Of a stretch of DNA of 64,000 nucleotides, positions 1 through 55,625 are shown piece after piece. The translations under genes were made by a program, and so were the position numbers. The notes beneath the pieces were generated by a model that was given only the letters and a program-made list of their open reading frames with translations, was not told the DNA's origin and made no database searches. The DNA is from Thermoproteota archaeon (GTDB taxonomy: Archaea > Korarchaeota > JAOZGF01 > JAOZFZ01). Position 1 is the first letter of the stretch. Each line of letters begins with the position of its first letter. The DNA lies in contig JAOZFT010000004.1 of the NCBI GenBank assembly GCA_027492035.1, positions 113,929-177,928 on the forward strand. Direction: 5' to 3'.

Positions 1-245
1 GTAGGGGCGAGAAACTTCGTTTCTATTCCCTTCCTATGTATTTTCCTTACAGTTTTCACTAATCCTTCTCTTTTTAGAATTGAAATGTGGTAATATAATC
101 GTTGCTCGTTTATGTTTAGTTCCTTAGCTAGTTTTTTCGTGTAAAGAGGTTTCTTAGCTAACCTTCTAAGTATTTCGACGCGTGTGGGGTGAGCTAATGC
201 TTTTAGTTCATTTATAGTGAGTAATTTAAACTTTTTATTAATCAC
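1..245 (-). CDS. ArsR/SmtB-family winged-helix transcription regulator, partial (C-terminus runs off the window start)
   Basis: Minus-strand ORF from GTG at 245, opened by in-frame TAG; translation MINKKFKLLTINELKALAHPTRVEILRRLAKKPLYTKKLAKELNINEQRLYYHISILKREGLV matches the ArsR HTH pattern. Not in the ORF track because it is truncated by the window edge. Confidence 0.5.
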   Translation of the reverse strand, partial: MINKKFKLLTINELKALAHPTRVEILRRLAKKPLYTKKLAKELNINEQRLYYHISILKREGLVKTVRKIHRKGIETKFLAP

Positions 246-558
246 CTTTTTCCACCTAAAGTTTAAATTTTCTTATAACGGTATAAATTTTTTTTAGTTC
301 TCTATTTTGAATACAGCTTCTTATTTCAATGAAAAACTCGAAGAAGATCACAGAGAAAAGGAAAGATAAATGTAGAATAATGAAACTTTATTCAGTGATT
401 GTGCAAATGGATTGTATGATTTCACGTTTCTTATCTGTTTTAACAATCTTTAAATGAAGATTTTTATAAGAGCAATCAGTCTCTGAAAGTGTTTTACTTA
501 ATTTAGGGGGATACATGATCCTTCAACTAGCCATTTTCATTGAGTGGGGGAAACAAAC

Positions 559-2367
559 TTGTGCGGCATTGTGGGTGTCATAAGTAAAGAATTTAATGTT
601 GCTCCTTTAATTGTTTCTATGCTGAAAAAATTGGAGTATAGAGGGTATGATTCCGCCGGTGTAGCTTTGGTTCAACCGGGAAAAGTAGTTGTAAAAAAGG
701 ATAGAGGAGTGATTGATGACATCAGGGAGAGGTATAACTTAACCAAAATGGAAGGTAAGGTAGGTTTAGGCCATACAAGATGGGCAACGCATGGGGCTCC
801 TTCACATAAAAATGCTCACCCCCATCAGGATTGCAGGGGTGAAATAGCAGTTGTACATAACGGTATAATTGAAAATTATGTGGAGTTGAAGAGGGAATTA
901 GTTATTCGAGGACATTTATTCAAATCTGAAACAGATACAGAAGTTATACCGCATTTAATAGAAGAAAAGTTAGCTGAAGGATTAGATTTGAAGGAAGCAG
1001 TTAAGGAAACAGTTAAAAAATTAAAGGGTTCCTTTGCTATTGCTGTTGTTTCAAGCAAGTTTCCCCATAAAATAGTTGCAGCTAAGAAAGGTAGTCCACT
1101 GGTGGTAGGTGTGTCTGAAGAAGCTTTATTCATAGCTTCTGATATACCAGCCTTTCTTCAACAAACAAACAAAGTTATTTTCATAAGCGAGGAAGAAATT
1201 GTTACTCTTACTGGTAATAAGGTTGAAATTGAAACTTTTAACGGTCAAAAAGTGAAAAGAACTATTCAAACAATAAACTGGACATATGAAATGGCTCAAA
1301 AATCAGGATATCCACATTTCATGTTAAAAGAAATAGAAGAACAACCCCTAGCTATAAAAGAAACCCTTAGATCAACTAATGGTGAACTAATGGAGATAGT
1401 TGAGGAAATAGTGAAAAATGAGGGAAACCTCTACTTTGTAGCAAGCGGAACCTCTTACCACGCTACACTTGCTGGAAAGTATATTTTCGCAAAAGTGGCG
1501 GGGATACCCTTTGAAACTATGCAATCATCGGAATTTACTGAAGCAATAGTTCCTACTCTTAGCCCAAAATCACTGGTTTTTGCAGTTAGTCAATCGGGAG
1601 AAACTGCTGACACAAAAGTTTCACTTAAAAAAGCTAAAGAAAGGGGGGCTAAAACCATTGCTTTAACAAATGTTTTAGGAAGCTCAATAACTAGGATAGC
1701 TGATGAAGTATGTTACACTTACGCAGGCCCTGAGATAGGAGTAGCTGCAACTAAAACATTCACTTCTCAAATTACGTTGCTGACTTATCTCGCCCTTAAA
1801 TCAGCTGAGGTTTTAGGGCTTGAAGTGGAGGAGAAGTTTAGAAAACTGAAAAAGTTACCTCAATACCTTTCTAAAACTTTAACCACATCCAACCTTGCGC
1901 AAAGAATAGCTAAAGAAATAAAAAGCCATGGAGACGTTTACTTTATTGGAAGAGGAGTAGGATATCCAGTAGCTTTGGAAGGAGCCTTAAAATTGAAGGA
2001 AATAAGTTATATTCATGCGGAGGGAACAGGAGCGGGGGAGTATAAGCATGGTCCACTGGCGTTAATTAGTGAAAACACTCCTGTGGTAGCTGTTGTTACG
2101 CCCGGCCCATCGCAAACAAAGATGGTGGGAAACATAGAAGAAGTAAAAGCAAGAGGAGCTAAAGTTATTTCGATAGCTCCAGAAGGAAACAAAAAAATAG
2201 AGGAAATGTCGAACTTCACCTTTAAAATAAATAGAGAAGTGGATGAATTCCTATCACCAGCACCTTACATAGTTCCTTTACAATATTTAGCTTATTATAC
2301 AGCAGTTTTAAGAGGTTTAAACCCAGACAAGCCTAGAAACCTGGCTAAAAGCGTCACTGTAGAGTAA
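559..2367 (+). CDS. glmS: Glutamine--fructose-6-phosphate aminotransferase (isomerizing)
   Basis: N-terminal nucleophile CGIVGV directly after a TTG at 559, class II amidotransferase domain, two SIS domains, C-terminal ...KSVTVE. Start placed at TTG 559 so Cys is residue 2; ORF track starts at 544. Confidence 0.9.
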   Translation: MCGIVGVISKEFNVAPLIVSMLKKLEYRGYDSAGVALVQPGKVVVKKDRGVIDDIRERYNLTKMEGKVGLGHTRWATHGAPSHKNAHPHQDCRGEIAVVHNGIIENYVELKRELVIRGHLFKSETDTEVIPHLIEEKLAEGLDLKEAVKETVKKLKGSFAIAVVSSKFPHKIVAAKKGSPLVVGVSEEALFIASDIPAFLQQTNKVIFISEEEIVTLTGNKVEIETFNGQKVKRTIQTINWTYEMAQKSGYPHFMLKEIEEQPLAIKETLRSTNGELMEIVEEIVKNEGNLYFVASGTSYHATLAGKYIFAKVAGIPFETMQSSEFTEAIVPTLSPKSLVFAVSQSGETADTKVSLKKAKERGAKTIALTNVLGSSITRIADEVCYTYAGPEIGVAATKTFTSQITLLTYLALKSAEVLGLEVEEKFRKLKKLPQYLSKTLTTSNLAQRIAKEIKSHGDVYFIGRGVGYPVALEGALKLKEISYIHAEGTGAGEYKHGPLALISENTPVVAVVTPGPSQTKMVGNIEEVKARGAKVISIAPEGNKKIEEMSNFTFKINREVDEFLSPAPYIVPLQYLAYYTAVLRGLNPDKPRNLAKSVTVE

Positions 2368-2380
2368 GGAGTTGTTTAGG

Positions 2381-3484
2381 ATGACAGATTTATGTTTCAT
2401 ATCTAACAGTTTTCCTCCGGATAAAGTTGGCAGCAAAGAATATTACGCGTTTCACGTATACAACCGCGTAAAACCAATTTGGGATGTAAAAGTAATAACT
2501 AAACATTGGTTATTAAAAATTCAAGATGAAAACGTTATCCAACTGGATTTCTGGAAAGTAAGAAAGATAGGAACTTACCTCTGGGCTCATAAAGTAGCTA
2601 AGGTTTTGAAGGAACAAAACCCAAAACATGTTCATGCCTTCGATTTTAGATCAATTTATTCAGCTTATTTGAGCGGCTTAAATTTTTCAGGGACATTACA
2701 CCATGAAGACATAAATTACATATCTAAACACTTTCTTCTCAAAAGAGTTTTTAGGAAATACTTTGAGAAAAGCGACAAGGTTTTCGTAACCAACTATAAA
2801 TCGTTAAATCTTCTGAAGAATTCCTTTAAGGATATAACCGATAAACTTGAACTTCTACCTTTAGGAGTTGATGCAAATAAGTTTTCTCCCTTTCAAAAGA
2901 CCAACACTATAAAGAAAAGGCTAAGTCTAGGCGAGAATGTTATTTTGCACGTCAGTGGTGAACTAACCCAAAACCAAGAATTAAAAAATTTAATTGAAGC
3001 ATACCGTAAATTAAAGAAAGAAATAAATGTCTCTTTGCTGATAATAGGGAAACCCTCTGAGAGTTTCAAAGATAAGTACAACCAACTTGTTAGAAACAGT
3101 CCCGACGTGACTTTCCTGGAATTTGTCCCTCACACAGAAATAAACAAGTATTACGCTTTAGCTGATGTTTTTGTTACCTTACCTTTAAAATATGACGGTG
3201 TGGGTTTGTCCATTCTGGAGGCAATGGCTTCAGCCACTCCTGTAATTTGTCCTCCTTCAGAAATCTATAAAGAAATGGGGGAGGAAAATATATTAACAGT
3301 CCCTAATGTAAAGGATGTTAAGGCACTAACAAAAATTCTAAAGGCTGTTCTAACAGATAAGAAATTCTCTAAAACATTAGGCTACAAGTCAAGGAAGTAT
3401 GTGATGGAGAATTATACGATCGAAACAATGATTTCTAAGTTGTCAAAGTATTTTGAAGAGAAAATAAAAAAAGTGAAATCTTGA
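2381..3484 (+). CDS. Glycosyltransferase, family 4 (GT-B fold)
   Basis: C-terminal EAMASATPVICPP motif typical of GT4/group 1 glycosyltransferases; ATG at 2381 preferred over the TTG at 2372. Confidence 0.7.
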   Translation: MTDLCFISNSFPPDKVGSKEYYAFHVYNRVKPIWDVKVITKHWLLKIQDENVIQLDFWKVRKIGTYLWAHKVAKVLKEQNPKHVHAFDFRSIYSAYLSGLNFSGTLHHEDINYISKHFLLKRVFRKYFEKSDKVFVTNYKSLNLLKNSFKDITDKLELLPLGVDANKFSPFQKTNTIKKRLSLGENVILHVSGELTQNQELKNLIEAYRKLKKEINVSLLIIGKPSESFKDKYNQLVRNSPDVTFLEFVPHTEINKYYALADVFVTLPLKYDGVGLSILEAMASATPVICPPSEIYKEMGEENILTVPNVKDVKALTKILKAVLTDKKFSKTLGYKSRKYVMENYTIETMISKLSKYFEEKIKKVKS

Positions 3485-3550
3485 AAGGCTACACCATATT
3501 TCATAACAAGGCTTTTCCGAAGCTAGAAATGCTCTAAGGAATTTAAAAAG

Positions 3551-5146
3551 TTAGGGTAAATATTTGACCATATAAGCCCCCAAGTGTTCGTACCCTAGCC
3601 TTTTATAGTATAATTTTGTACCTAAAGCGCTTGTTACCAGAATTTTCTCTTTACGGTGCTTTTCACTTATTTCTTCAGCTAAAGATAAAAGCTTCTTTCC
3701 TACACCCTTATGCTGGTAAGCATTTTTTTTCTTGGCACCTACAGGAATCATCTCGCCATAAACATGCAGCTCACGAACTAACGCTGACTTACCCCTTATC
3801 TCCCACCTGAAAACCTTTGAAGAAGGAAATCTGAGCCTAAGAAAACCTACCAATGCGTCCTCTAACTTAGCCGTTAAAAAGAATTCACGCCCCCCCGAGG
3901 CTTCATAACTAGTTATTTCATAACTTATTTCACAGGAACCTTCCTTTTTCTTCTTCAAACGACCTATTTCATTACATCTTATGCATTTGCATCTTAACCC
4001 CTTTTCATCCATGTATTCCTTAATAAGTTGTCTTAAATTGCTTTTCTTAACACCAGCTGCTATTTCCGGTGCTGGGATGTCACGTTGAACCCGCATTATC
4101 CGCACCCAAGGCGGAACTAAGGATTTTATTGCAGCAATTACTTCAATTGCAGTTTCTAAACTGTAAGGGATGTACACCCCCTCTTTCCAAAGGGTATAAA
4201 GCTTAGTTCCAGGAATAACCAAGGTGGGGTAGATCTTTAACATGTCAGGTTTAAATTTCTCATCCATGAATATTTCCTTCGCCATTGAAACATCCATCTT
4301 AGGAGTTGAACCAGGTAAACCAGGCATGATATGGTAACATACTTTTAAACCGGAGTCTTTCAGTTGTTGAGTGGCTTCATAAACATCCTTTACTCCATGT
4401 TCCCTATTTATCAAGGAGTATATTTCATCATAAATGGTTTGTACACCTAATTCAACCCTGGTAACACCTAATTCCAGCATTAAGTTTATATGTTCCTTTT
4501 TTGAATAATCAGGCCTTGTCTCCACAGTTAAACCAACATTTCTTATTTCACTTGACTCAGCAAGCCTTTTTGTTTCCTCTAGCGTCCTTCCTATTTTATT
4601 ATTTAAAGCGTCTAAACATTTTTTCACAAACCCCCTTTGATAATTTCTTGACATTGCAGGGAAAGTGCCTCCCATAATAATTAGTTCAACTTTGCTTACG
4701 GTATGTCCTATGGAGGATAATTGCTTTATACGCTGTTTAACTTGCATGTAAGGATTGAATTCGTTTTGAATTGCCCGCATAGCTGCTGGTTCTTTGCCTG
4801 TATAGCTCTGAGGAACGTCGCCAAAAATCGAACTAGGTCCTCCAGGGCAATAAATACATGGTTTATCTTTGGGACAGGGGAAGGGATGAGTCATAACTGC
4901 TATAACATTCACGCCTGAAAGACTTCTGACATTTTTTATCCTCAACAAGTTTTTAAATTGAAACAGCCCCCTCTTTTCCATGTAGGAGATAATCTCTGAA
5001 TTTTTGGGGACCCTTCTCAAGTTTAGCCTTTTAGCTACCTTAATCTTTAATTTATTAAGTTGAACAGGGTCCACAGTTCCTGAATTGGGAATTTCTTTCA
5101 ACAATTCTTCAGAGAAAACATTTGTGGACCAGAGGGTGTTTTCCAA
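3551..5146 (-). CDS. elp3: Elongator Elp3-like tRNA uridine(34) acetyltransferase (radical SAM + GNAT)
   Basis: Radical SAM cysteine motif CIYCPGGP, 531 aa, C-terminal GNAT-like region HKGVGKKLLSLAEE. Confidence 0.85.
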   Translation of the reverse strand: MENTLWSTNVFSEELLKEIPNSGTVDPVQLNKLKIKVAKRLNLRRVPKNSEIISYMEKRGLFQFKNLLRIKNVRSLSGVNVIAVMTHPFPCPKDKPCIYCPGGPSSIFGDVPQSYTGKEPAAMRAIQNEFNPYMQVKQRIKQLSSIGHTVSKVELIIMGGTFPAMSRNYQRGFVKKCLDALNNKIGRTLEETKRLAESSEIRNVGLTVETRPDYSKKEHINLMLELGVTRVELGVQTIYDEIYSLINREHGVKDVYEATQQLKDSGLKVCYHIMPGLPGSTPKMDVSMAKEIFMDEKFKPDMLKIYPTLVIPGTKLYTLWKEGVYIPYSLETAIEVIAAIKSLVPPWVRIMRVQRDIPAPEIAAGVKKSNLRQLIKEYMDEKGLRCKCIRCNEIGRLKKKKEGSCEISYEITSYEASGGREFFLTAKLEDALVGFLRLRFPSSKVFRWEIRGKSALVRELHVYGEMIPVGAKKKNAYQHKGVGKKLLSLAEEISEKHRKEKILVTSALGTKLYYKRLGYEHLGAYMVKYLP

Positions 5147-5465
5147 TTCTATATACCCCTAAATTTAATTAGTTTGGGAAAGGATAGTTTATTAGGGGGA
5201 GAGAGAAACTTTAATAATATTCTTTTAAATTCTCCTTAGCCTTTCATGGGAGTAGAGGAAAAAAGGCAGGTTTACTTACGTTACTTTTTTAAGGTATACC
5301 TTTATATTTTTAAACATTGAAGGAATTTTATGGAAGGGAAACGTGAGCATGGGATTTCTTTATTGCTTCTCTCCTTTTTTTTAAAAAAAAAGGGAGAGTG
5401 AATGAAAAAGAGTAAAGGGTGAGAAGACTTTCTGCAGGTTAAAATTTTGAGGAGGTGATACTTTT

Positions 5466-10129: not shown

Positions 10130-11419
10130 CTATGAATAGGTTTTTAAACAATGAACTGAAATTCTTAATGAAGCAGCAAATAAAGCAAGCTCGAAAAGGC
10201 TGAAACCCATCTCGAATTTTGAAACAAGTTCACTTATTAGAATTAGGTAGGATGCTAGACAATGCTCTGCTTTTCTTAACCTGTAATTGAGTCCTAAAAT
10301 AAATCCTAAAAGTAAGGGTAAGGAAATTAATTCAGCTAAACCACCATCCATCACGAAAGGAGCGAAAAAGGATGCGGTTAACCCTTTATTTTTATGGCCA
10401 ATGAAATGGCCTATTACTAAATTTGGGTGGTAGTAAGCTGTCCATACACGTAATCTGAGCCCTTCATAGCCGAAAGGCAAGCTCTTCTTCACTATTTTAT
10501 TGTATAGACCTATATTTACTCCCAACCTGTAAAGTAATAGGTTAAAAGGGTTAGCTTCATTTCTCAAATTTCCGTATTGGGAAGAAGCCTTAAAAAAACC
10601 AAGCAAAGCCACTAAAGAAAACAGGATAGAAACAAAAAGAAATACTGAAAGTAGAGTTTTCCAGGAGAGGGATTTTTTAGCCGTTAAAACTATAAAGAAA
10701 CCTATTAAGAGGAAAGAGATTAGATCTACTCTGTAACCGTAACTTCCATAAATTAGGGCTGATAAGGCAATAAACAACACTTTGTTGAATGTTTTCTTTA
10801 TTTTTTGGAGAGCTGCGGCATAAGTGAACACCCCATAGGCTCTACCTACTGTTGATAAGGGATAGTAAGTTGGTAAACCTTGAGAAGGAAATAAAAGTGG
10901 AAACTTTAACTGAGAAAGCAAAGGAAGGAGGAACATTATGGAGAAAATTGAGTAAAGAGAAAACGTAATCTTAGGAGAAAAATAAAGGAGATATTTAGAT
11001 TCTTTATACCCTTTTATGTATTTCCTGAAGTAAAACGGCACCTTAAAAGATGATTCAAAACTGAACCAAATTGCAGCAGATATTAAGAAACTCTGGAAAT
11101 CAAATAGTTTTTTAAAAAGGATTTCTGAAATCATGAAGCCTGAGATTACGAAGAAGATAAAGGATAAGAACCAAGACCTCTTTACCAGAACGAATTCTTT
11201 ATTGAGCTTAATGTGCAAAGCCAAAAATAAACCGGAATAAATACTAGCCATGCCTAAAACAAAAGTAAAAAATGTTTCTAAGGAGGGTTTATTGAAGTTG
11301 CTTAACCAATTGGAGGTTGGAGTCCAAAAAAAGGCTAATTCCGCCAAAGAAAGGTATAAAAGGAAGATAAGAAATGTGAGCAGGTATGGATTAATTAATG
11401 TTTCAGTTTTAAATTTCAA
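10130..11419 (-). CDS. Polytopic membrane protein, paralog of the upstream neighbor (possibly glycan polymerase/flippase-like)
   Basis: Many hydrophobic segments; shares a motif block with ORF 11421-12728 (LVIGHFIGHKNKGLTASFFAPFVMDGGLAELI vs IITNLIGAEAGVTSTCTIYGQFLADFGLSGIL). Confidence 0.4.
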   Translation of the reverse strand: MKFKTETLINPYLLTFLIFLLYLSLAELAFFWTPTSNWLSNFNKPSLETFFTFVLGMASIYSGLFLALHIKLNKEFVLVKRSWFLSFIFFVISGFMISEILFKKLFDFQSFLISAAIWFSFESSFKVPFYFRKYIKGYKESKYLLYFSPKITFSLYSIFSIMFLLPLLSQLKFPLLFPSQGLPTYYPLSTVGRAYGVFTYAAALQKIKKTFNKVLFIALSALIYGSYGYRVDLISFLLIGFFIVLTAKKSLSWKTLLSVFLFVSILFSLVALLGFFKASSQYGNLRNEANPFNLLLYRLGVNIGLYNKIVKKSLPFGYEGLRLRVWTAYYHPNLVIGHFIGHKNKGLTASFFAPFVMDGGLAELISLPLLLGFILGLNYRLRKAEHCLASYLILISELVSKFEMGFSLFELALFAASLRISVHCLKTYS

Positions 11420-11420
11420 C

Positions 11421-12728
11421 CTAAACCCTCCTTTTCAATGAGCATAGGAATAGAGTAATAGAGATGAAGAGGTAGATGTAAACATTAAAATCTAATATTC
11501 CAGTTTCAATTCCTGGAACAAAGTAAGACATGAAAACAGAATAAGAAAAAATCGGAATAACTTTTCCTTCATTTACTTTACTATGAATTAAACTTATAAC
11601 TAGACCCATCAAAAGAAACTCAAGCAAAATTCCAGATAGGCCAAAATCAGCTAAGAATTGGCCGTAAATTGTGCAAGTTGAGGTGACACCTGCTTCAGCA
11701 CCTATTAGGTTAGTTATTATGGACCTTGGTCCTATTCTTGGACCTGGCAAAAATTTAATAACACTTGTTATTGCTGAATATTGGACAGCACCCCTTGTGT
11801 ACCCGTTAAAACCCACCCTTTTCAAAATCAGTTCTAAATTGTAGGTTGTAATTGTGGACCTGGAGAAAATAAGGGTGAGAAGCAGCAAGGGATTAGCCAC
11901 CCCCCACCTTACTGAACTTACTGCAACATATACCGTTCCACCCATTAAGGCGGGAAGGAGGATATCGATAAACCTAAGGGTGCCAGTCAGGTAGAGCACA
12001 AATATACCTCCTATTGCTTCCGCTAAAACGCCTGTCCTGAAACCTAAAAATGAAACCAAGATAAGGTTAACCAGGAAAAAGAAACCCAGTGAAACCCTAA
12101 TTTTAGAGTTACTGTTTACAGAATATTTATTGCCATAAAAACACAAAATAAAAAGGGAGGAGGGAATAATTGTCCATGCTAGATAGGTAAAACGTACGTA
12201 CTTGTAAAGATACCCCCTAAGCCCTGGCTGAAATAAAGGAATGCCACCTACTGCCCATAACAAGTAAAGTAACGAAGAGAGAGAGAATAGGTAGAGGAGA
12301 ATAAAGGAGCTAAGCAAAAATTTTCCAACTTCCCTCACCTTCATTTTTTGAAAAATTCTCCCTCCTATTTTAGTCCCCAGTAAAAAAGCAACTATTCCTG
12401 AAAAAATAACTGTTAACGCTTCTTTAGTGAGTTTAACACTTGATAAGGAGAAAAAGAGAAATATAAGGAAAGGGAGAAAAAGTGGGCTGAAAAGCAACCT
12501 TAAAAATTTACTATTTCTTTCTAAAATTGAAAAAGAAGAAGTTAACTTGACCCATTTTATGTCAACCCAACTAAACAGTTTAATCAAGCTGTCCAGAAAG
12601 GAGAGAATAAGGCAGCAAATAAGTGAGTGAAGCAAAAGGTTTTTAAGTGATAGAAAAAAATTAGTTGCAACCTTTAACAAAAAGCTTCTTTTGATGTCAC
12701 TTTTCAATTTTTCGAGGAAGGAAGCCAC
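11421..12728 (-). CDS. Polytopic membrane protein, paralog of 10130-11419
   Basis: Multi-TM 435-aa ORF in tandem with and similar in motif pattern to the downstream ORF. Confidence 0.4.
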   Translation of the reverse strand: MASFLEKLKSDIKRSFLLKVATNFFLSLKNLLLHSLICCLILSFLDSLIKLFSWVDIKWVKLTSSFSILERNSKFLRLLFSPLFLPFLIFLFFSLSSVKLTKEALTVIFSGIVAFLLGTKIGGRIFQKMKVREVGKFLLSSFILLYLFSLSSLLYLLWAVGGIPLFQPGLRGYLYKYVRFTYLAWTIIPSSLFILCFYGNKYSVNSNSKIRVSLGFFFLVNLILVSFLGFRTGVLAEAIGGIFVLYLTGTLRFIDILLPALMGGTVYVAVSSVRWGVANPLLLLTLIFSRSTITTYNLELILKRVGFNGYTRGAVQYSAITSVIKFLPGPRIGPRSIITNLIGAEAGVTSTCTIYGQFLADFGLSGILLEFLLMGLVISLIHSKVNEGKVIPIFSYSVFMSYFVPGIETGILDFNVYIYLFISITLFLCSLKRRV

Positions 12729-13672: not shown

Positions 13673-15307
13673 CTACTCAGTTTCTTCCCCTCCCTCCTTA
13701 CCTTCTTTGCCACCTGTTTTCTCTTCAACTCCTTTAGCAGCTAGAATATCATCTATTCGAAGAATCATTGTCGCTGCTTCAACTGCTGACTTGATCTCAT
13801 GTTTCTTAACTCTCCAAGGCTCTATTACACCATTTTGGACCATGTCAACTACTTCACCCGAAAAGACGTCGACGCCTGCATTTTTTACACCTTCCTTATG
13901 CTGCGAAGTCAGTTTACTCATTATTTCTATCGGGTCAAGACCTGCGTTTTCAGCAAGTGAGCGAGGTATTATTTCCAGTGCATCTGCAAATGATTTAATA
14001 GCTAATTGCTCTTTACCACTAACAGATTCAGCGTATTTCTTAACCTCCTTTATTATTTCTGCTTCTACTGCACCTCCACCTGGTAGGATTAAGCCATCTT
14101 CAATAGAGTCTTTGACAACAAACAAAGCATCATGTAGAGCTCTTTCTGCCTCATCAACCACATGTTCAGCTCCCCCTCTTATCAAAATAGTCATTGCCTT
14201 AGGGTTTTTGCAGCCTTCAATGAACACCATTTTGTCGTCCCCTATTTTTCTTTGTGCAACTAAGCCGGCATAACCCACGTCTCTTTCTGTTAAATTATCT
14301 ACGTTCGTTACTATTCGAGCACTGGTTGCCTTGGCTAGCCGGTCCATGTCTTTAGAACTTACTCTCCTAACCGCTAAAATTTCTGCTTTGGCAAGGAAAT
14401 GCTGAGCCATATCATCTATTCCTTTCTGACAGAAAACCACGTTAGCACCTACTTTTTTGATTTTTTCAACCATTTCTCTTAACATTTTAGTTTCTTCATC
14501 CATGAACTGCTTCATTTGAAGGGGGTCTCTTATGTCTATTTCTGCGTCAAATTCTGTCTTCTCTATTTCAAGAGGACTTTTTATAAGAGCTATTTTTGCC
14601 TCTTTAACTGTTTTAGGCATTCCTGCATGTACCACTTCTTTATCTAGCACCACCCCTTTTACGAGAAGTGATTCTTTCAAACTTTTACCTTGTTTTTTCA
14701 CTAATTTTATCTGGTCTAAGTCAACGAAATATTTTCCATCCCTTTCTTCTGCAACTGTTTGCGCGACTTTGACCACAATATCTGCAAGGTATTCTCTTTC
14801 GGTGGCTGTGCTTTTCCCGTGCATTGCAGTCATTGCAATTTTCTTCAGGGTTTCTGTATCTTCTTTTTTAACATGCAGCGACATATTGCGCAAAATTTCT
14901 AATGCTTTACTAGAGGCCTTCCTGAACCCATTTATTATTACTACAGGGTGTATGTTTTTGTTCAGTAATTCTTCAGCTTTGCTTAATAGTTCTCCTGCAA
15001 GAATAACTACTGAAGTTGTTCCATCCCCAGCTTCATTATCCTGTGTTTTCGACAGTTCAACCATTATTTTTGCAGCTGGATGCTCTACATCTATTTCATC
15101 CAAGATTGTTGCGCCGTCGTTAGTAACTACTACATCCCCCAATGAATCAACGAGCATTTTATCCATTCCTTTCGGTCCTAAGGTTGTTTTTATTGCTTCG
15201 CTTATCACTTTGGCAGCTAATATATTTGCTCTTCGTGCATCTCTACCCCTAATTCTTTGAGTACCTTCTTTCAAAATGATAACAGGTGTACCTGATAGAG
15301 TAGACAA
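13673..15307 (-). CDS. ths: Thermosome subunit (group II chaperonin)
   Basis: [26 protein letters not shown], 544 aa, acidic G/K/E C-terminal tail. Confidence 0.95.
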
Positions 15308-25356: not shown

Positions 25357-25481
25357 TGGGCCCGGCGGGATTTGAACCCGCGACCCTCGGGTTGCTCCTC
25401 CAAAGGGGAGTACTTCTTTGGGATTAAGAGCCCGGTGCTTTAGGCAAATGAGAGGTTTCTACCTTGCTGAGCTACGGGCCC
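25357..25481 (-). tRNA. tRNA-Lys(CUU) with two predicted introns (about 19 nt in the D-stem, about 32 nt in the anticodon loop)
   Basis: 7-bp acceptor GGGCCCG/CGGGCCC, T-arm GCGGG-UUCAAAU-CCCGC. Removing AACCUCUCAUUUGCCUAAA restores D-arm GCUC-AGCAAGGUA-GAGC; anticodon stem CCGGG with loop CUCUUAA after removing a hairpin-forming intron. Isotype from hand folding. Confidence 0.6.
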
Positions 25482-28397: not shown

Positions 28398-30599
28398 TCA
28401 CATAGTCTCTAAGGAAAACTTTTTTAATGAAGGCTTCCTAAAGTTTTTTTCAAAACTTTTGTACCAACTCGTCAATTCAGGGGATATGGAAGGAGAAACA
28501 AGAAGTAGTGCCTCCTCAAAATCTTGCATCCTAACCTTTACAGGTTGCATTTTGTTTTTCCTTAAAGCTATAAAGCCTGCCTCACGGCAAATAGATTTTA
28601 TATCGGCACCTGAGTAACCTTGTGTTTTTTCAGCAAGTTTTTCTAAGTCAACATCATTTTTAAGTTTCATCTTTCTAGTGTAAATTTTGAATATTTCCAC
28701 TCTTGAGTAGAAGTCAGGCTCGCCTACATATATTAATTTCTCCAGTCTACCTGGCCTAAATAAAGCAGGATCCACTAAATCTGGCCTGTTAGTGGCTGCT
28801 ATGACTGTTACGTTTTTTAGTTCCTTAACTCCATCTATCTCAGTTAAAAGTTGACTTACTGCTCTTTCCATAGCATTATTTAATGAACCACTTCTCTTAG
28901 GGGCTATAGCATCTACCTCATCGAAGAAAACAATTGAAGGGGCAGCTAACTTTGCTTTACGGAAAATTTCACGTACTGCCCTTTCAGTTTCACCCATCCA
29001 CATGCTTATTATTTCTGGGCCGTTTATAGCTATGAAATTTGCCTCTGTTTCATTAGCTACAGCCTTAGCAAGTAAAGTTTTACCGCAACCAGGAGGACCA
29101 TAAAGTAAAACACCACTAGGAGGCTCAATACCCATTTCTTCAATGACTTCTCGGTGTTTTAATGGCCATTCTACAGCTTCTCTTAAGCTTGACTTAGCTT
29201 CATGTAATCCGCCGATGTCGCCCCATTTCACATCCGCTTTTTCGAGGATTATTTCCCTTAATGCACTTGGTTGAACTCTTTTTAAAGCTTTTTGGAAGTC
29301 GCAAGCCTTTATTTTTATCTCATCAAAGATTTCAGGTGAGAATTTCCCTTTTTCCGAATCTATTGTTGGTATATATCGTCTTAAGGCTATTATCGCAGCT
29401 TCTTTCGCAAGAGCAGATAAGTCAGCCCCTACAAATCCATGGGTTACTTCAGCTATTTCTTCAAGGTTCACATCTTCGGCTAAGGGCATGTTTCGAGTAT
29501 GTATTTTCAATATTTCCAGTCTTTCCTTTTTATCGGGAACTTTTATCTCTATTTCCCTATCTAATCTCCCAGGTCTTCTTAAGGCAGGTTCCAGTGCATT
29601 GGGTCGGTTAGTAGCTGCTATAACTATTACCTTCCCTCTTGTTGAAAGCCCGTCCATTAACGCTAAAAGTTGGGCCACTACCCTTCTCTCAACTTCACCT
29701 GTAACCTCTTCCCTTTTAGGGGCTATAGCATCTATTTCATCAATGAAAATGATTGAAGGAGACTTATTTTTTGCTTCATTAAATATTTTTCTAAGCCTGC
29801 GTTCTGATTCACCATAGAATTTGTTCATTATTTCTGGGCCGTTTATAGCTATGAAATTTGCCTCTGTTTCATTAGCTACAGCCTTAGCAAGTAAAGTTTT
29901 ACCGCAACCAGGAGGACCATAAAGTAAAACACCACTAGGAGGCTCAATACCAAGTTTTTGGAAAAGCTCCGGGTATTTTAAGGGAAGTTCAACCATTTCC
30001 CGGATTCTTTGGATTTCTTCTTTTAAACCACCAATGTCTTCGTAGGTCACATAGGGAATATTGCCGGTGGTTGAAACTGATTTTTCCCGAAGCACGATTG
30101 CAGTATTTGCTTCAACTACTACAATGCCTTTCGGCTTAGTATTTACTACCTTTAGGTTTAGGCTGTGATGATAAAAGTTTACAGGTTTTAGGTCTCCTAC
30201 AACTAAGGGAACTCCTATTAACTTCTTTTTAATATATTTAGTTATGTTTCCTGGTAATTTAGATTGGACAGGTGCTAAAATTATTTTTTCAGCTTTGCCA
30301 GGGTAAGCTTTCTCGACATATACCCTCTCTCCCAAACTGACATCTGCATTCCTCCTTGTTATGCCATCCATTCTAATTAAGCCTAGGTTTTCATCCTCCG
30401 GGTAGGCTCTCCAAACAATTGCTGCAGTGGTTTTTTTGCCTGTAATTTTCACTATGTCTCCAATGTTTAGGTTAAGTAAACGTCTGGTTGCAGAGTCTAA
30501 CCTAACAGCTTCCTTACCTACGTCTTCTATCTTGGCATTAGCTACTTTCACAACAACTTTCACTGTTTTCAAAGGAATCCCTTTCAAAAAAATTAACAA
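28398..30599 (-). CDS. cdc48: Cdc48/VCP-like AAA+ ATPase (two AAA domains)
   Basis: N-domain plus two Walker A (GPPGCGKT) and Walker B ([16 protein letters not shown]) modules; 733 aa. Confidence 0.95.
29008..29132. repeat. 125-bp perfect direct repeat, copy 1 (cdc48 D2 Walker A region)
   Basis: Identical at every base to 29827-29951; both encode [38 protein letters not shown]. Confidence 0.9.
29827..29951. repeat. 125-bp perfect direct repeat, copy 2 (cdc48 D1 Walker A region)
   Basis: Identical to 29008-29132; flanking bases differ on both sides. Confidence 0.9.
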
Positions 30600-32439: not shown

Positions 32440-32526
32440 GGGCCCGTGGCCTAACATGGATAAGGCGTCGGCCTGCGGTTTTTAGAAGAAAGCCGGAGGA
32501 TGCGGGTTCAAATCCCGCCGGGCCCG
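32440..32526 (+). tRNA. tRNA-Arg(GCG) with 12-nt anticodon-loop intron
   Basis: Acceptor GGGCCCG/CGGGCCC, D-arm GCCU-AACAUGGAUA-AGGC, anticodon stem UCGGC/GCCGG with loop CUGCGG + intron UUUUUAGAAGAA, T-arm GCGGG-UUCAAAU-CCCGC. Confidence 0.75.
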
Positions 32527-36573: not shown

Positions 36574-36664
36574 TGGGCCGGGTGGGATTCGAACCCACGA
36601 CCTCCGCCTTTTTCCAAGGAACAAAACGTGAAGGCGACGTCATAACCATCTAGACCACCGGCCC
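36574..36664 (-). tRNA. tRNA-Val(CAC) with 17-nt anticodon-loop intron
   Basis: Acceptor GGGCCGG/CCGGCCC, anticodon stem UCGCC/GGCGG with loop UUCACG + intron UUUUGUUCCUUGGAAAA, T-arm GUGGG-UUCGAAU-CCCAC. Confidence 0.7.
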
Positions 36665-53051: not shown

Positions 53052-55625
53052 GTAAAGATAAAGGAACCTAATCTCCCGGAAAAAGTTGCACAAGCAGCTG
53101 CGAAATTAGGCATAAGGGCCCTTTTCCCGCCTCAAATAAGAGCTATAAAGAAGGGAATTCTAAAGGGTAAAAATTTCGTCATAGCTACACCTACAGCTAG
53201 TGGAAAAACATTTATAGCATTAGCTGCGATAATAACCAAGTTAAATAAACACAGTGATAAAGCTATTTATTTAGCACCTCTACGGAGTATAGCATCGGAA
53301 AAATACAGTGAATTCAAAGAATTATTTGATGAATTAGGGTTAAGGACGGCTATTTCCACCGGTGACTTCGATCTTTCACCCGACTGGTTGAAAGGATATA
53401 ACATAATTATTTCCACGAATGAAAAAATTGACTCAATCATTAGACACAACCCAAAGTGGTTACAAGACGTAAAGGTAGTTGTAGTGGATGAAGTGCACCT
53501 TATTGACAGTTTGAAACGTGGCCCAATAATCGAACTCTTAATCGCTAAACTAAGGAAGAAAATAGAAAACCCACAAATTTTGTGCTTAAGTGCAACAATT
53601 AAAAATGTGAAAGAACTAGCGGAATGGATTAATGGAACATATATAAGCAGCAACTGGAGACCCGTAGAACTCAGGGAGGGAGTATTTTATGATTACAAAA
53701 TCTATTGGAGCAATGGAACAAAAAACGTAAGGAAAATTAAGGGGGAGAAATACACAGACCTCTGTCTAGATACATTAAAGGAGAAAGGGCAGGTACTTGT
53801 TTTTTTAAACACCAGAAAAAACGCAGAAAACACCGCAGAAAAAGTAAAGAACGCTATTTCCAACACTCTTACTGAAGAAGAGAAAAAGGAACTTAAAAAA
53901 ACAGCTAGAAGGATTATTTCAGAAGGAGAACAAACTAAACTTTCGAAAAAACTAGCTAACCTAATAATGAGTGGAGTTGCATATCATCACGCAGGTTTAA
54001 GGCATATTCATCGTGCAATAGTAGAGGAAGCATTCAGAAGTAATTTTCTAAAAGTTATTTGTGCAACCCCCACCTTAGCTGCAGGAGTTAACCTCCCAGC
54101 TAGGAGGGTAATAATAGGGCAAATTCATAGATTTTCAAAGGGAAAAGGAAGTCAACCTATTTCTGTAATGGAGTACAAACAAATGTGTCTGCCGTATGAC
54201 ACGCTGATCTTAACAGAAGAAGGGGAGATAGAGATAGGGGAGATAGTTGAAAAGAGAACTCCAAAAAAAGTTGTCAGTTTAGATCTTGAAACCGGTAAAG
54301 TAACCTTGAGCAAGATATTATCCTTTTTTGAAAGGAAAACTAATTTTTTGGTTAAACTCTTTTTAACTACTGGCTTAAACCTAGAACTGACACCTAACCA
54401 TCCATTGCTGGCAGTTAAAAACGGAAGGTACGGATGGTTACTTGCAAAAAGAATACGGAGAGGCGATGTTGTATTTACGTTAGATAAAGGGCTAATGAGA
54501 AAGATAAAAGTGAAAAAGGTAAAAAGAATAAACTTAGATAGCCCGATCACTGTCTTCAATTTGAAAACAGAAAAGGAAACCTTTTTTGCGGAAAGAATTG
54601 TATTGCATAATTGTGGACGGGCAGGTAGACCAAAGTATGATGAAATAGGGGAGGCGGTTCTTATAGCAAACACTGAAGAAAGAAAGGAAAAGTACTTAAA
54701 AAAGTACGTGAACTCGAAACCAGAAAAAATAAAATCGAAACTGGTTGATTCACCTGCCCTAAGAGCGCAGATTCTGTCACTAATAACTTCTAATTTGGCA
54801 TTCACTCCTGAAGATATGAGGGACATATTTAAGTTGACTTTTTATTACAGCCAAACTAAAGAGAAAAAGAAAATAGAGAGAAAGATTAAAGAAACATTAG
54901 ATTTCTTGTTACTTAACGGATTTATAAAGAAAACAGGGGACTTGCTTCATGCTACAAAGTTAGGAAAAAGGGTTTCTTTACTTTATTTAGATCCTCTTAC
55001 AGCAATAATTTTACTTAAAGGAATGGAAAAACTAGAAAAGAAGAAAGTCACTCCTCTTTCATTACTAACACTGATCTGCCTCACTCCAGACATGGAAACA
55101 CTAAGTTACCGTAAGGCATTCTATCACGAAATGAACAACTTACTTAAAGAAAGAGAGGAAGAACTACCCCTAGAAGTTTATTATACTTCAACCTATTACT
55201 TGCTCGATCAAGACTGGCTGCAAGCAATATGGACTGCAAATATGCTTGAGAAATGGATAAATGAAGAAAATGAAGACACTTTAAACTTTAAGTACGGAGT
55301 TGGCCCAGGAGACATAAGAAGAGTAAATGAAAGTGCTGATTGGCTCCTCTACTCCATGCAGGAATTAGCCAAAACGTTTAAACATGAGAATTACATTCCT
55401 TTAATTGAAGAACTAAGGCAAAGAATAAAATATGGAGTGAAGAAGGAACTAATTGAATTAACTACCATAAAGGGTATTGGAAGGGTAAGAGCCAGAGTCC
55501 TCTACAATAAGGGATACAAACGTTTAGAAGATTTGAGTAAGGCGTCTATAAATGAACTTGCTAAACTTCCAGCTATAGGCGAAGCCTTAGCAAAAAGTAT
55601 TAAAGAACAACTAAATGAGGAATAG
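53052..55625 (+). CDS. hel308: Hel308 (Hjm) Ski2-like helicase, containing a mini-intein; true start codon unresolved
   Basis: Walker A ATPTASGKT, DEVH box VVVVDEVHL, motif VI QM-CGRAGRP interrupted by intein, C-terminal HhH (IKGIGRVRARVL). Homologous N-terminus lies upstream of the ORF-track start (53388) with no ATG/GTG/TTG in frame back to the stop at 52905; 53052 is a frame-consistent placeholder. Confidence 0.8.
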   Translation, partial: VKIKEPNLPEKVAQAAAKLGIRALFPPQIRAIKKGILKGKNFVIATPTASGKTFIALAAIITKLNKHSDKAIYLAPLRSIASEKYSEFKELFDELGLRTAISTGDFDLSPDWLKGYNIIISTNEKIDSIIRHNPKWLQDVKVVVVDEVHLIDSLKRGPIIELLIAKLRKKIENPQILCLSATIKNVKELAEWINGTYISSNWRPVELREGVFYDYKIYWSNGTKNVRKIKGEKYTDLCLDTLKEKGQVLVFLNTRKNAENTAEKVKNAISNTLTEEEKKELKKTARRIISEGEQTKLSKKLANLIMSGVAYHHAGLRHIHRAIVEEAFRSNFLKVICATPTLAAGVNLPARRVIIGQIHRFSKGKGSQPISVMEYKQMCLPYDTLILTEEGEIEIGEIVEKRTPKKVVSLDLETGKVTLSKILSFFERKTNFLVKLFLTTGLNLELTPNHPLLAVKNGRYGWLLAKRIRRGDVVFTLDKGLMRKIKVKKVKRINLDSPITVFNLKTEKETFFAERIVLHNCGRAGRPKYDEIGEAVLIANTEERKEKYLKKYVNSKPEKIKSKLVDSPALRAQILSLITSNLAFTPEDMRDIFKLTFYYSQTKEKKKIERKIKETLDFLLLNGFIKKTGDLLHATKLGKRVSLLYLDPLTAIILLKGMEKLEKKKVTPLSLLTLICLTPDMETLSYRKAFYHEMNNLLKEREEELPLEVYYTSTYYLLDQDWLQAIWTANMLEKWINEENEDTLNFKYGVGPGDIRRVNESADWLLYSMQELAKTFKHENYIPLIEELRQRIKYGVKKELIELTTIKGIGRVRARVLYNKGYKRLEDLSKASINELAKLPAIGEALAKSIKEQLNEE
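54186..54611 (+). other. Mini-intein (142 aa, no homing-endonuclease domain) in Hel308 motif VI
   Basis: Begins with Cys (CLPYDTLILTEEG, block A), contains TPNHPLL (block B TxxH), ends FFAERIVLHN followed by Cys +1; flanking exteins YKQM / CGRAGRP reconstitute motif VI. Confidence 0.8.

Follow-up and report, generated by a model that had tools for sequence, protein, structure and literature searches.

The cdc48 gene of a Korarchaeota archaeon (GenBank assembly GCA_027492035.1) lies on the minus strand at positions 28398-30572 of a 64,000-nt stretch of contig JAOZFT010000004.1, hereafter the window, and contains a perfect 125-nt direct repeat shared by the Walker A regions of its pair of AAA domains, termed D1 and D2. 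This repeat is very probably the footprint of recurrent intragenic gene conversion, i.e., non-reciprocal homologous recombination, between D1 and D2 of a single Cdc48/VAT gene, and it is one instance of a recurrent phenomenon found in several archaeal phyla. An earlier note on this DNA had offered two explanations, namely that gene conversion had recently taken place within the gene or that the assembly had collapsed. Conversion is supported by the corresponding block of a sister species and by a switch in tree topology between block and flanks, and collapse is contradicted by three further assemblies. The single recent event that the note implied is replaced by recurrent homogenisation, which extends to other archaeal phyla.

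The D1 copy, the putative donor, spans positions 29827-29951 (gene nts 622-746, G208 to I248 plus 2 nts) and the D2 copy, the putative recipient, spans positions 29008-29132 (gene nts 1441-1565, G481 to I521 plus 2 nts), both read on the minus strand. They are identical at 125/125 positions, as first noticed in the earlier note, and their flanks differ at once, with mismatches at 29007/29826 and 29133/29952. The copies are spaced by 819 nts, i.e., 273 codons, so they are in frame with each other, and the 694 nts between them (29133-29826, minus strand) encode the rest of D1, its lid, the D1-D2 linker and the start of D2. The block covers strand β1, the Walker A P-loop, helix α1 and strand β2, and encompasses the GPPGCGKT motifs of D1 (amino acids (aa) 219-226, 29895-29918, minus strand) and D2 (aa 492-499, 29076-29099, minus strand). 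It ends one codon short of the domain-specific pore-loop-1 segments, NKFYG in D1 (aa 250-254, 29811-29825, minus strand) and SMWMG in D2 (aa 523-527, 28992-29006, minus strand), and two codons short of their KFYG and MWMG cores. At the 819-nt offset, identity is mostly 47-80% in adjacent 30-nt segments inside the AAA domains and about 20-40% in segments farther away. A k-mer scan of the 64-kb window revealed no other exact repeat of at least 25 nts, direct or inverted. Mobile-element, intein and CRISPR-type origins were set aside, both copies being core P-loop coding sequence of one intact open reading frame (ORF).

The identity of the two copies extends to synonymous positions. Among codons that encode the same amino acid in D1 and D2 and could vary synonymously, 41/41 are identical within the block and 42/87 outside it (Fisher p = 2e-10), and the chance of obtaining 41/41 at the outside-block rate is about 1e-13. 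When gene-wide codon usage was taken as the reference in a Poisson-binomial test, the probability was 7e-17 for the window gene and 3e-19 for L001, the cdc48 gene of a sister species (GCA_027491455.1). Outside the block, the codon identity at shared amino acids fits codon usage (48 observed, 43.2 expected). The two domains share 39% amino-acid identity there, indicating that they are old paralogues and not the product of a recent duplication. The earlier note took D1 and D2 to be ancient paralogues, a premise with which this value and the published subtrees of the domains (PMC5070193) agree. A recent tandem domain duplication was ruled out, the high identity being limited to the block and the flanks having diverged.

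The comparison with L001 is the most informative. The encoded Cdc48 is 72% identical to that of the window, and the two loci share the gene order EF1b-cdc48-small ORF-FEN1. L001 also contains a perfect D1/D2 block, of 132 nts, at gene nts 614-745, the sequence of which differs from that of the window. Over the 125-nt block, the paralogues within each genome show no differences and the orthologues of the window and L001 show 25. Over the 21-nt left flank, the corresponding values are 9-11 differences between paralogues and 9 between orthologues, and over the 34-nt right flank 15-18 and 6-9. In the flanks of both genes, D1 is nearer to D1 and D2 nearer to D2 than D1 is to D2, and pore loop 1 is diverged between the domains (KFYG in D1, MWMG in D2) in both species. 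This switch in tree topology between the block and its flanks is the defining signature of concerted evolution. Codons for the same amino acid differ between the window and L001 at 55% in the block and at 58% in the whole gene, and the block is therefore under no special constraint at the nucleotide level. Furthermore, each of the 22 synonymous codon differences found in the block between the two species is present in both copies within a genome. Because synonymous change in the block is ordinary in amount yet mirrored in both copies, at least one conversion is required in each lineage after the split between the window and L001.

Selection acting directly on the nucleotide sequence, through codon choice, mRNA structure or an embedded DNA or RNA signal, might in principle keep the copies identical without recombination. 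No part of the protein is more constrained than the P-loop, preferred codons are frequent at conserved residues, and a slight pooled excess of codon identity, of about 1.1, is observed at other conserved motifs. However, a sequence held in this way is not expected to differ at 25/125 nts between the window and L001 with synonymous change close to the gene average, nor would independent selection on two copies be expected to produce 22 parallel synonymous codon switches. The Walker B and ATNRP/RPGRFD motifs, which are similarly conserved, show no comparable effect. Selection of this kind is accordingly an extremely improbable cause of the repeat, and recurrent conversion remains the preferred reading.

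The window belongs to a metagenome-assembled genome (MAG), in which a collapsed, chimeric or over-polished repeat could make different sequences look identical, and the site does disturb assemblers, since one contig ends at the edge of the block and three others show a looped arrangement, both described below. The repeat is nevertheless found in separate assemblies. The cdc48 gene of GCA_027491625.1 (L003) is identical to that of the window, and the gene of GCA_027491775.1 (L002, on a 133-kb contig) encodes the same protein and differs by two synonymous single-nucleotide polymorphisms (SNPs). One of these, GAG>GAA in codon 210 (window position 29943), is present in the D1 copy only, and the repeat in this assembly consists of 8 nts, one mismatch and 116 nts. 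The comparison of D1/D2 nucleotide identity in related genomes, which the earlier note had proposed as a check, hence gave the same picture in L003, L002 and L001, all of which carry the repeat or block at this site. In L001, moreover, the perfect block occupies this position in another species and with another sequence. Repeats make de Bruijn assemblers collapse or break; such programs do not turn sequences of only about 60% identity into identical in-frame copies. An artefact of assembly as the source of the repeat is therefore barely credible.

The same site appears to have interrupted the assembly of a third relative, GCA_027491945.1, whose EF-2 is 81-82% identical to those of the window and L001. 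Its contig JAOZFZ010000008.1 opens inside cdc48 at about codon 250 (approximately positions 2-751), and the called fragment of 250 residues begins MKGMKVSLRVANARIEDVGKGVV. This contig end coincides with the downstream boundary of the D1 block, which points to a repeat-induced assembly break. A protein search with the N domain only did not recover the truncated fragment of this species, its matches being 207-362 aa long and at most 49% identical. N-terminal Cdc48 fragments that end just after Walker A are mildly enriched in the database, an observation that is confounded by the length filter and was not used as evidence. The lineage is represented only by a few NCBI MAGs, which were found via protein look-ups; scans of public genome and metagenome contig collections returned nothing closer than 58% identity. 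The window protein also occurs on a 666-kb NCBI contig, where the start is called differently. In addition, a protein of 331 aa from a 5.4-kb NCBI contig (P0121), which falls in the same 90% protein cluster, matches the window Cdc48 up to about aa 305 except for two substitutions and then continues into an unrelated, frameshifted tail (…VAQLLSVNGWARGGGTCDSHRCHK). This would be explained either by a sequencing or assembly error or by a chimeric contig within D1.

The phenomenon was followed in a set of 80 homologues, consisting of the window gene, L001 and 78 out of 80 loci from GTDB species representatives. The longest exact in-register run shared by D1 and D2 ranges from 10 to 132 nts in this set, and all runs longer than 26 nts are located at Walker A. 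Long runs are found in L041 (87 nts), L020 (86 nts), L029 (83 nts), L007 (72 nts) and L037 (70 nts). At positions with the same amino acid, the pooled ratio of observed to expected codon identity reaches 1.62 and 1.53 in the pair of ten-codon bins that contain the P-loop and 1.27 in the adjoining bins. Elsewhere it varies from 0.9 to 1.17, also at Walker B and ATNRP/RPGRFD, which are conserved to the same degree. An individually significant excess of D1/D2 codon identity is observed at Walker A in 19/80 genes, three of them from Woesearchaeota with identical blocks of 83-87 nts, as against 1/80 outside Walker A. By group, the ratio at Walker A reaches 1.74 in Bathyarchaeia, 1.36 in DPANN-type archaea and 1.30 in Thermoplasmata, and it is 1.13 in 12 bacterial homologues. 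The pattern seen in the window and L001 is repeated in three Woesearchaeota genes (L041, L020 and L029), where D1 and D2 show no differences within each genome over 81 nts and the genomes differ from each other at 9-16 positions; in a control segment of the same genes, D1 groups with D1 and D2 with D2. Longer tracts are under-sampled in such a set because they would tend to break short-read contigs.

In L053, from Aenigmatarchaeota (JAFCEK010000057.1), D1/D2 codon identity is in excess outside Walker A (77 observed, 49 expected, p = 2.5e-8). This identity is patchy over ATNR, GRFDR and the lid, where the domains share 'REVTKKDF', and suggests that the C-terminal half of the domains underwent conversion earlier and over a longer tract.

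The direction of transfer was scored with position-specific profiles built from homologues without sign of conversion. The block is D1-like in both species, by about +14 bits in L001 and +19 bits in the window. Counted from the first Gly of GPPGCGKT, the D1-type residues that it encodes are Glu (-9), Ser (-6), Asn (+25) and Ile (+29), whereas Lys, Lys, Lys and Leu are found there in unconverted D2 domains. Because the D2 copy carries D1-type residues, D1 was the donor and D2 the recipient in the event that first spanned the block region. This first spanning conversion probably predates the split between the window and L001, since the D2 domains of both share the D1-type residues, and each lineage would have been re-homogenised later. 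GC-biased conversion was considered and rejected, the GC content at third codon positions being below, not above, that of the rest of the gene in the block.

The boundaries of the tract are also reproducible, the longest identical run falling between -11 and +31 in every gene examined and ending ahead of the pore loop, in which the aromatic motifs of D1 and D2 differ. The pore loops of D1 and D2 are functionally distinct in VAT and p97, and the right-hand boundary is likely to be set by selection against conversion of the pore loop.

The mechanism best supported by these observations is ectopic homologous recombination. Strand invasion between D1 and D2, within one chromosome or between sister copies, would be seeded by the nucleotide identity that the P-loop offers as the most conserved stretch of both domains. 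One copy would then be overwritten with the other, in the window's lineage D2 with D1, along a heteroduplex or repair-synthesis tract some 40 codons long. Once identical, the copies would exchange more easily, so the block would be re-homogenised repeatedly while drifting synonymously between species. The tract is confined to the region from the start of strand β1 (the Gly of L/M-G-I-E-P-P) to the last codons ahead of pore loop 1; most likely, selection purges any tract that extends over the pore loop (KFYG in D1, MWMG in D2) or the upstream linker. The enzymology is presumably that of RadA-dependent recombination, possibly between genome copies. The data thus show the identity, the limits of the tract, the topology switch, the donor polarity and the recurrence elsewhere, and the RadA pathway and the selective origin of the limits are inferred.

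Several points weigh against recurrent D1-D2 conversion as described here. The identity of the copies and their physical linkage were established from assemblies and not from reads of the population, and the RadA pathway is proposed from general knowledge. The polarity is unreadable for the later rounds of re-homogenisation, in which the copies already encoded the same residues. In the homologue set, the part of the pooled excess that amounts to about 1.1-1.3 could come in part from a stronger codon preference at conserved residues and not from conversion. Finally, only 64 kb of the genome is visible and P-loop segments are alike across AAA+ genes, leaving room for another source: a third AAA+ gene, such as a second Cdc48 paralogue or PAN, or a horizontal transfer, might have supplied the segment to both D1 and D2. 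The block, however, has D1-specific residues and runs seamlessly into D1-type flanks, the window contains no further copy, and exchange between D1 and D2 is the simpler explanation for a pattern that recurs at this site in unrelated lineages. Such a source is therefore very unlikely.

The earlier note had also remarked that such a repeat could mediate an 819-bp deletion, a reasonable suggestion because the product would stay in frame. Unequal recombination between the copies would remove or duplicate the 694-nt segment together with one copy, i.e., 819 nts in frame. No deletion form was found among the Cdc48 homologues analysed. Apparent duplications were found in three contigs from three unrelated archaeal lineages, all encoding N-D1-D1-D2 proteins: L084 (positions 2001-5246) from the Nanopusillus assembly GCA_032249435.1, with 1081 aa and annotated by NCBI as a CDC48-family ATPase; L085 (positions 165-3146) from JGI 3300045900, with 993 aa; and L086 (positions 337-3360) from ERZ23495177, with 1007 aa. 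At the DNA level, they have the order A-R-B-R-B-R-C, with R as the Walker A repeat, which measures 44 nts and is exact, or 62 and 70 nts with one mismatch each, and the two B units of 775-800 nts are 100% identical within each contig. Because this lack of divergence between the B units is found in 3/3 cases, an artefact is more likely and the reality of the three-domain contigs is doubtful. The pattern fits either an assembler loop that was traversed twice or a very recent unequal crossover. Whether real or artefactual, these contigs place the repeat in further lineages and reveal it as a source of database contamination.

The three contigs bear on the idea that the repeat is maintained for a function as recombination substrate, which would generate in-frame variants of domain number in the population, N-D1-D1-D2 or N plus a single hybrid domain. 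In its favour, the offset is in frame, the junctions of all three contigs lie inside the Walker A repeat, and the SNP pattern in the repeat copies of two of them would demand a junction within 20-21 nts, which fits poorly with large-k assembly of a clonal genome. On the other hand, 100% identical duplicated units are what an assembler loop run twice would give, no deletion form was seen among the homologues analysed, and nothing points to a benefit. Moreover, D1 and D2 rings that differ from each other are required for the function of Cdc48. Retention of the repeat for this purpose is consequently most improbable. The related proposal that the Walker A repeat is a hotspot of unequal recombination, with the N-D1-D1-D2 ORFs as genuine three-ring unfoldases and reciprocal single-ring deletions arising in populations, is unlikely. 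Recurrent conversion between the two domains thus remains the preferred account of the repeat itself.

Gene conversion is reported to act on another archaeal ATP-dependent protein machine, the chaperonin (thermosome), among whose subunit paralogues it was reportedly described by Archibald and Roger in the early 2000s. The two cases have in common partial tracts between paralogues and a mosaic phylogenetic signal, with the difference that the thermosome tracts join separate genes at variable positions and the Cdc48 tract occupies one preferred site, the P-loop, within a single gene. The classical bacterial case is that of tufA and tufB (Lathe & Bork 2001; Kondrashov et al. 2007, as cited in PMC6053082). 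Going by that citing account, they are ancient P-loop NTPase paralogues which remain identical or nearly so within a genome by recurrent conversion and diverge between species, and they share with the Cdc48 block the diagnostic feature that paralogues are closer than orthologues. As cited there, conversion between the tuf copies joins separate genes and covers most of their length, whereas the partners in Cdc48 are two domains of one ORF, of which about 125 nts (about 15% of the domain) are homogenised and the remainder stays at about 39% amino-acid identity.

In a catalogue of 26 prokaryotic genes under concerted evolution, based on a screen of separate paralogous genes, the archaeal cases are all from methanogens (PMC6053082). 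Cdc48 resembles these genes in that conversion recurs across related species and the products form homo-oligomers or complexes, and the catalogue shows that the process operates in Archaea. Cdc48 is not listed there, and it differs in that the exchange joins domains within one gene and that the signal is found in the window's lineage, in Bathyarchaeia and in DPANN archaea. Homogenisation of internal or intragenic repeats is known from spidroins (as cited in PMC6053082) and from duplicated yeast histones (PMC4700949), in which, to judge from these accounts, unequal exchange or conversion likewise homogenises the units and the parts affected are shaped by selection. The spidroin and histone repeats, as presented there, are young or functionally equivalent, unlike D1 and D2 of Cdc48, which are ancient and functionally distinct. 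Regarding Cdc48 itself, D1 and D2 were described as separate subtrees across Archaea and eukaryotes, and recombination between them is unmentioned (PMC5070193). No report of Cdc48 D1/D2 gene conversion or concerted evolution was found in the full-text literature searched, whose coverage has gaps, and the negative amounts to no more than absence of evidence. No paper was found under the accessions of the MAGs either, and an apparent match on D1/D2 (PMC7203096) concerns photosystem D1/D2 and was discarded. The process is hence classical concerted evolution, already well known, and the intragenic case in Cdc48 is a new example of moderate conceptual novelty.

The consequences concern phylogeny, function and data quality. 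D1 and D2 are treated as ancient and independently evolving, and their trees are used for the history of the family (PMC5070193), yet the P-loop segment is repeatedly exchanged in several archaeal phyla, and domain trees or paralogue rooting that use this segment carry a mosaic signal. D2 can gain D1-specific residues beside the nucleotide site without loss of the difference between the pore loops, which constitutes a natural experiment on the residues that are interchangeable between the rings. The resulting perfect repeats of 40-130 nts break short-read assemblies inside an essential marker gene, and probably also generate spurious three-AAA 'CDC48 family' proteins that are already present in public databases. 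To the few cases of long-lasting concerted evolution in prokaryotes that have been listed (PMC6053082), the Cdc48 block contributes one that is intragenic and extends over several phyla.

The identity of the gene is clear from its domain layout. The mechanical ORF extends over 28398-30599 on the minus strand, with a likely start at 30572, the start used in the public protein P0001, which gives 724 codons and an N domain followed by D1 and D2. Pfam matches comprise CDC48_N (aa 9-89, E = 3e-26), CDC48_2 (aa 107-167, E = 9e-13), two AAA (PF00004) and two AAA_lid_3 stretches. The Walker B motifs are DEID in D1 (aa 278-281) and DEVD in D2 (aa 551-554). The closest PDB match is Thermoplasma VAT (5g4f, E = 1.5e-229, aa 6-707), followed by p97/Cdc48 entries. 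On these sequence matches, the product is a Cdc48/VAT/p97 type II AAA+ ATPase, predicted to act as a hexameric ATP-dependent unfoldase.

The C-terminus (28398-28420, minus strand) reads ...KKFSLETM, and ...SMETM in the sister species, without a penultimate Tyr in either. In archaeal VAT/Cdc48 proteins, HbYX is the canonical proteasome-docking motif (PMC5070193), and it appears to be absent from this Cdc48 because the penultimate residue is not Tyr.

The neighbours of cdc48 in the window, which has a GC content of about 36%, include genes for FEN1, EF-1beta, EF-2, MCM, a thermosome subunit and tRNAs, features by which the source is recognised as an archaeon, and the nearest named homologues of the EF-2 are from Bathyarchaeia (about 61% identity). 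Three Rfam tRNA matches of 87-125 nts are located at 25357-25481 (minus strand), 32440-32526 (plus strand) and 36574-36664 (minus strand), of which ARAGORN calls one, tRNA-Arg CCT; the match lengths suggest intron-containing archaeal tRNAs. An ORF at 53388-55625 (plus strand) has the DEAD, Helicase_C, archaeal helicase domain 4 and HHH matches of a Hel308-type archaeal helicase, together with an Intein_splicing match at aa 274-395. Its DEAD match begins in the middle of the profile, and the N-terminal part is therefore probably encoded upstream. Finally, two adjoining ORFs at 10130-11419 and 11421-12728 (both minus strand) match the O-antigen polymerase family (PF01901) and form a tandem paralogue pair, which adjoins the thermosome gene (13673-15307).

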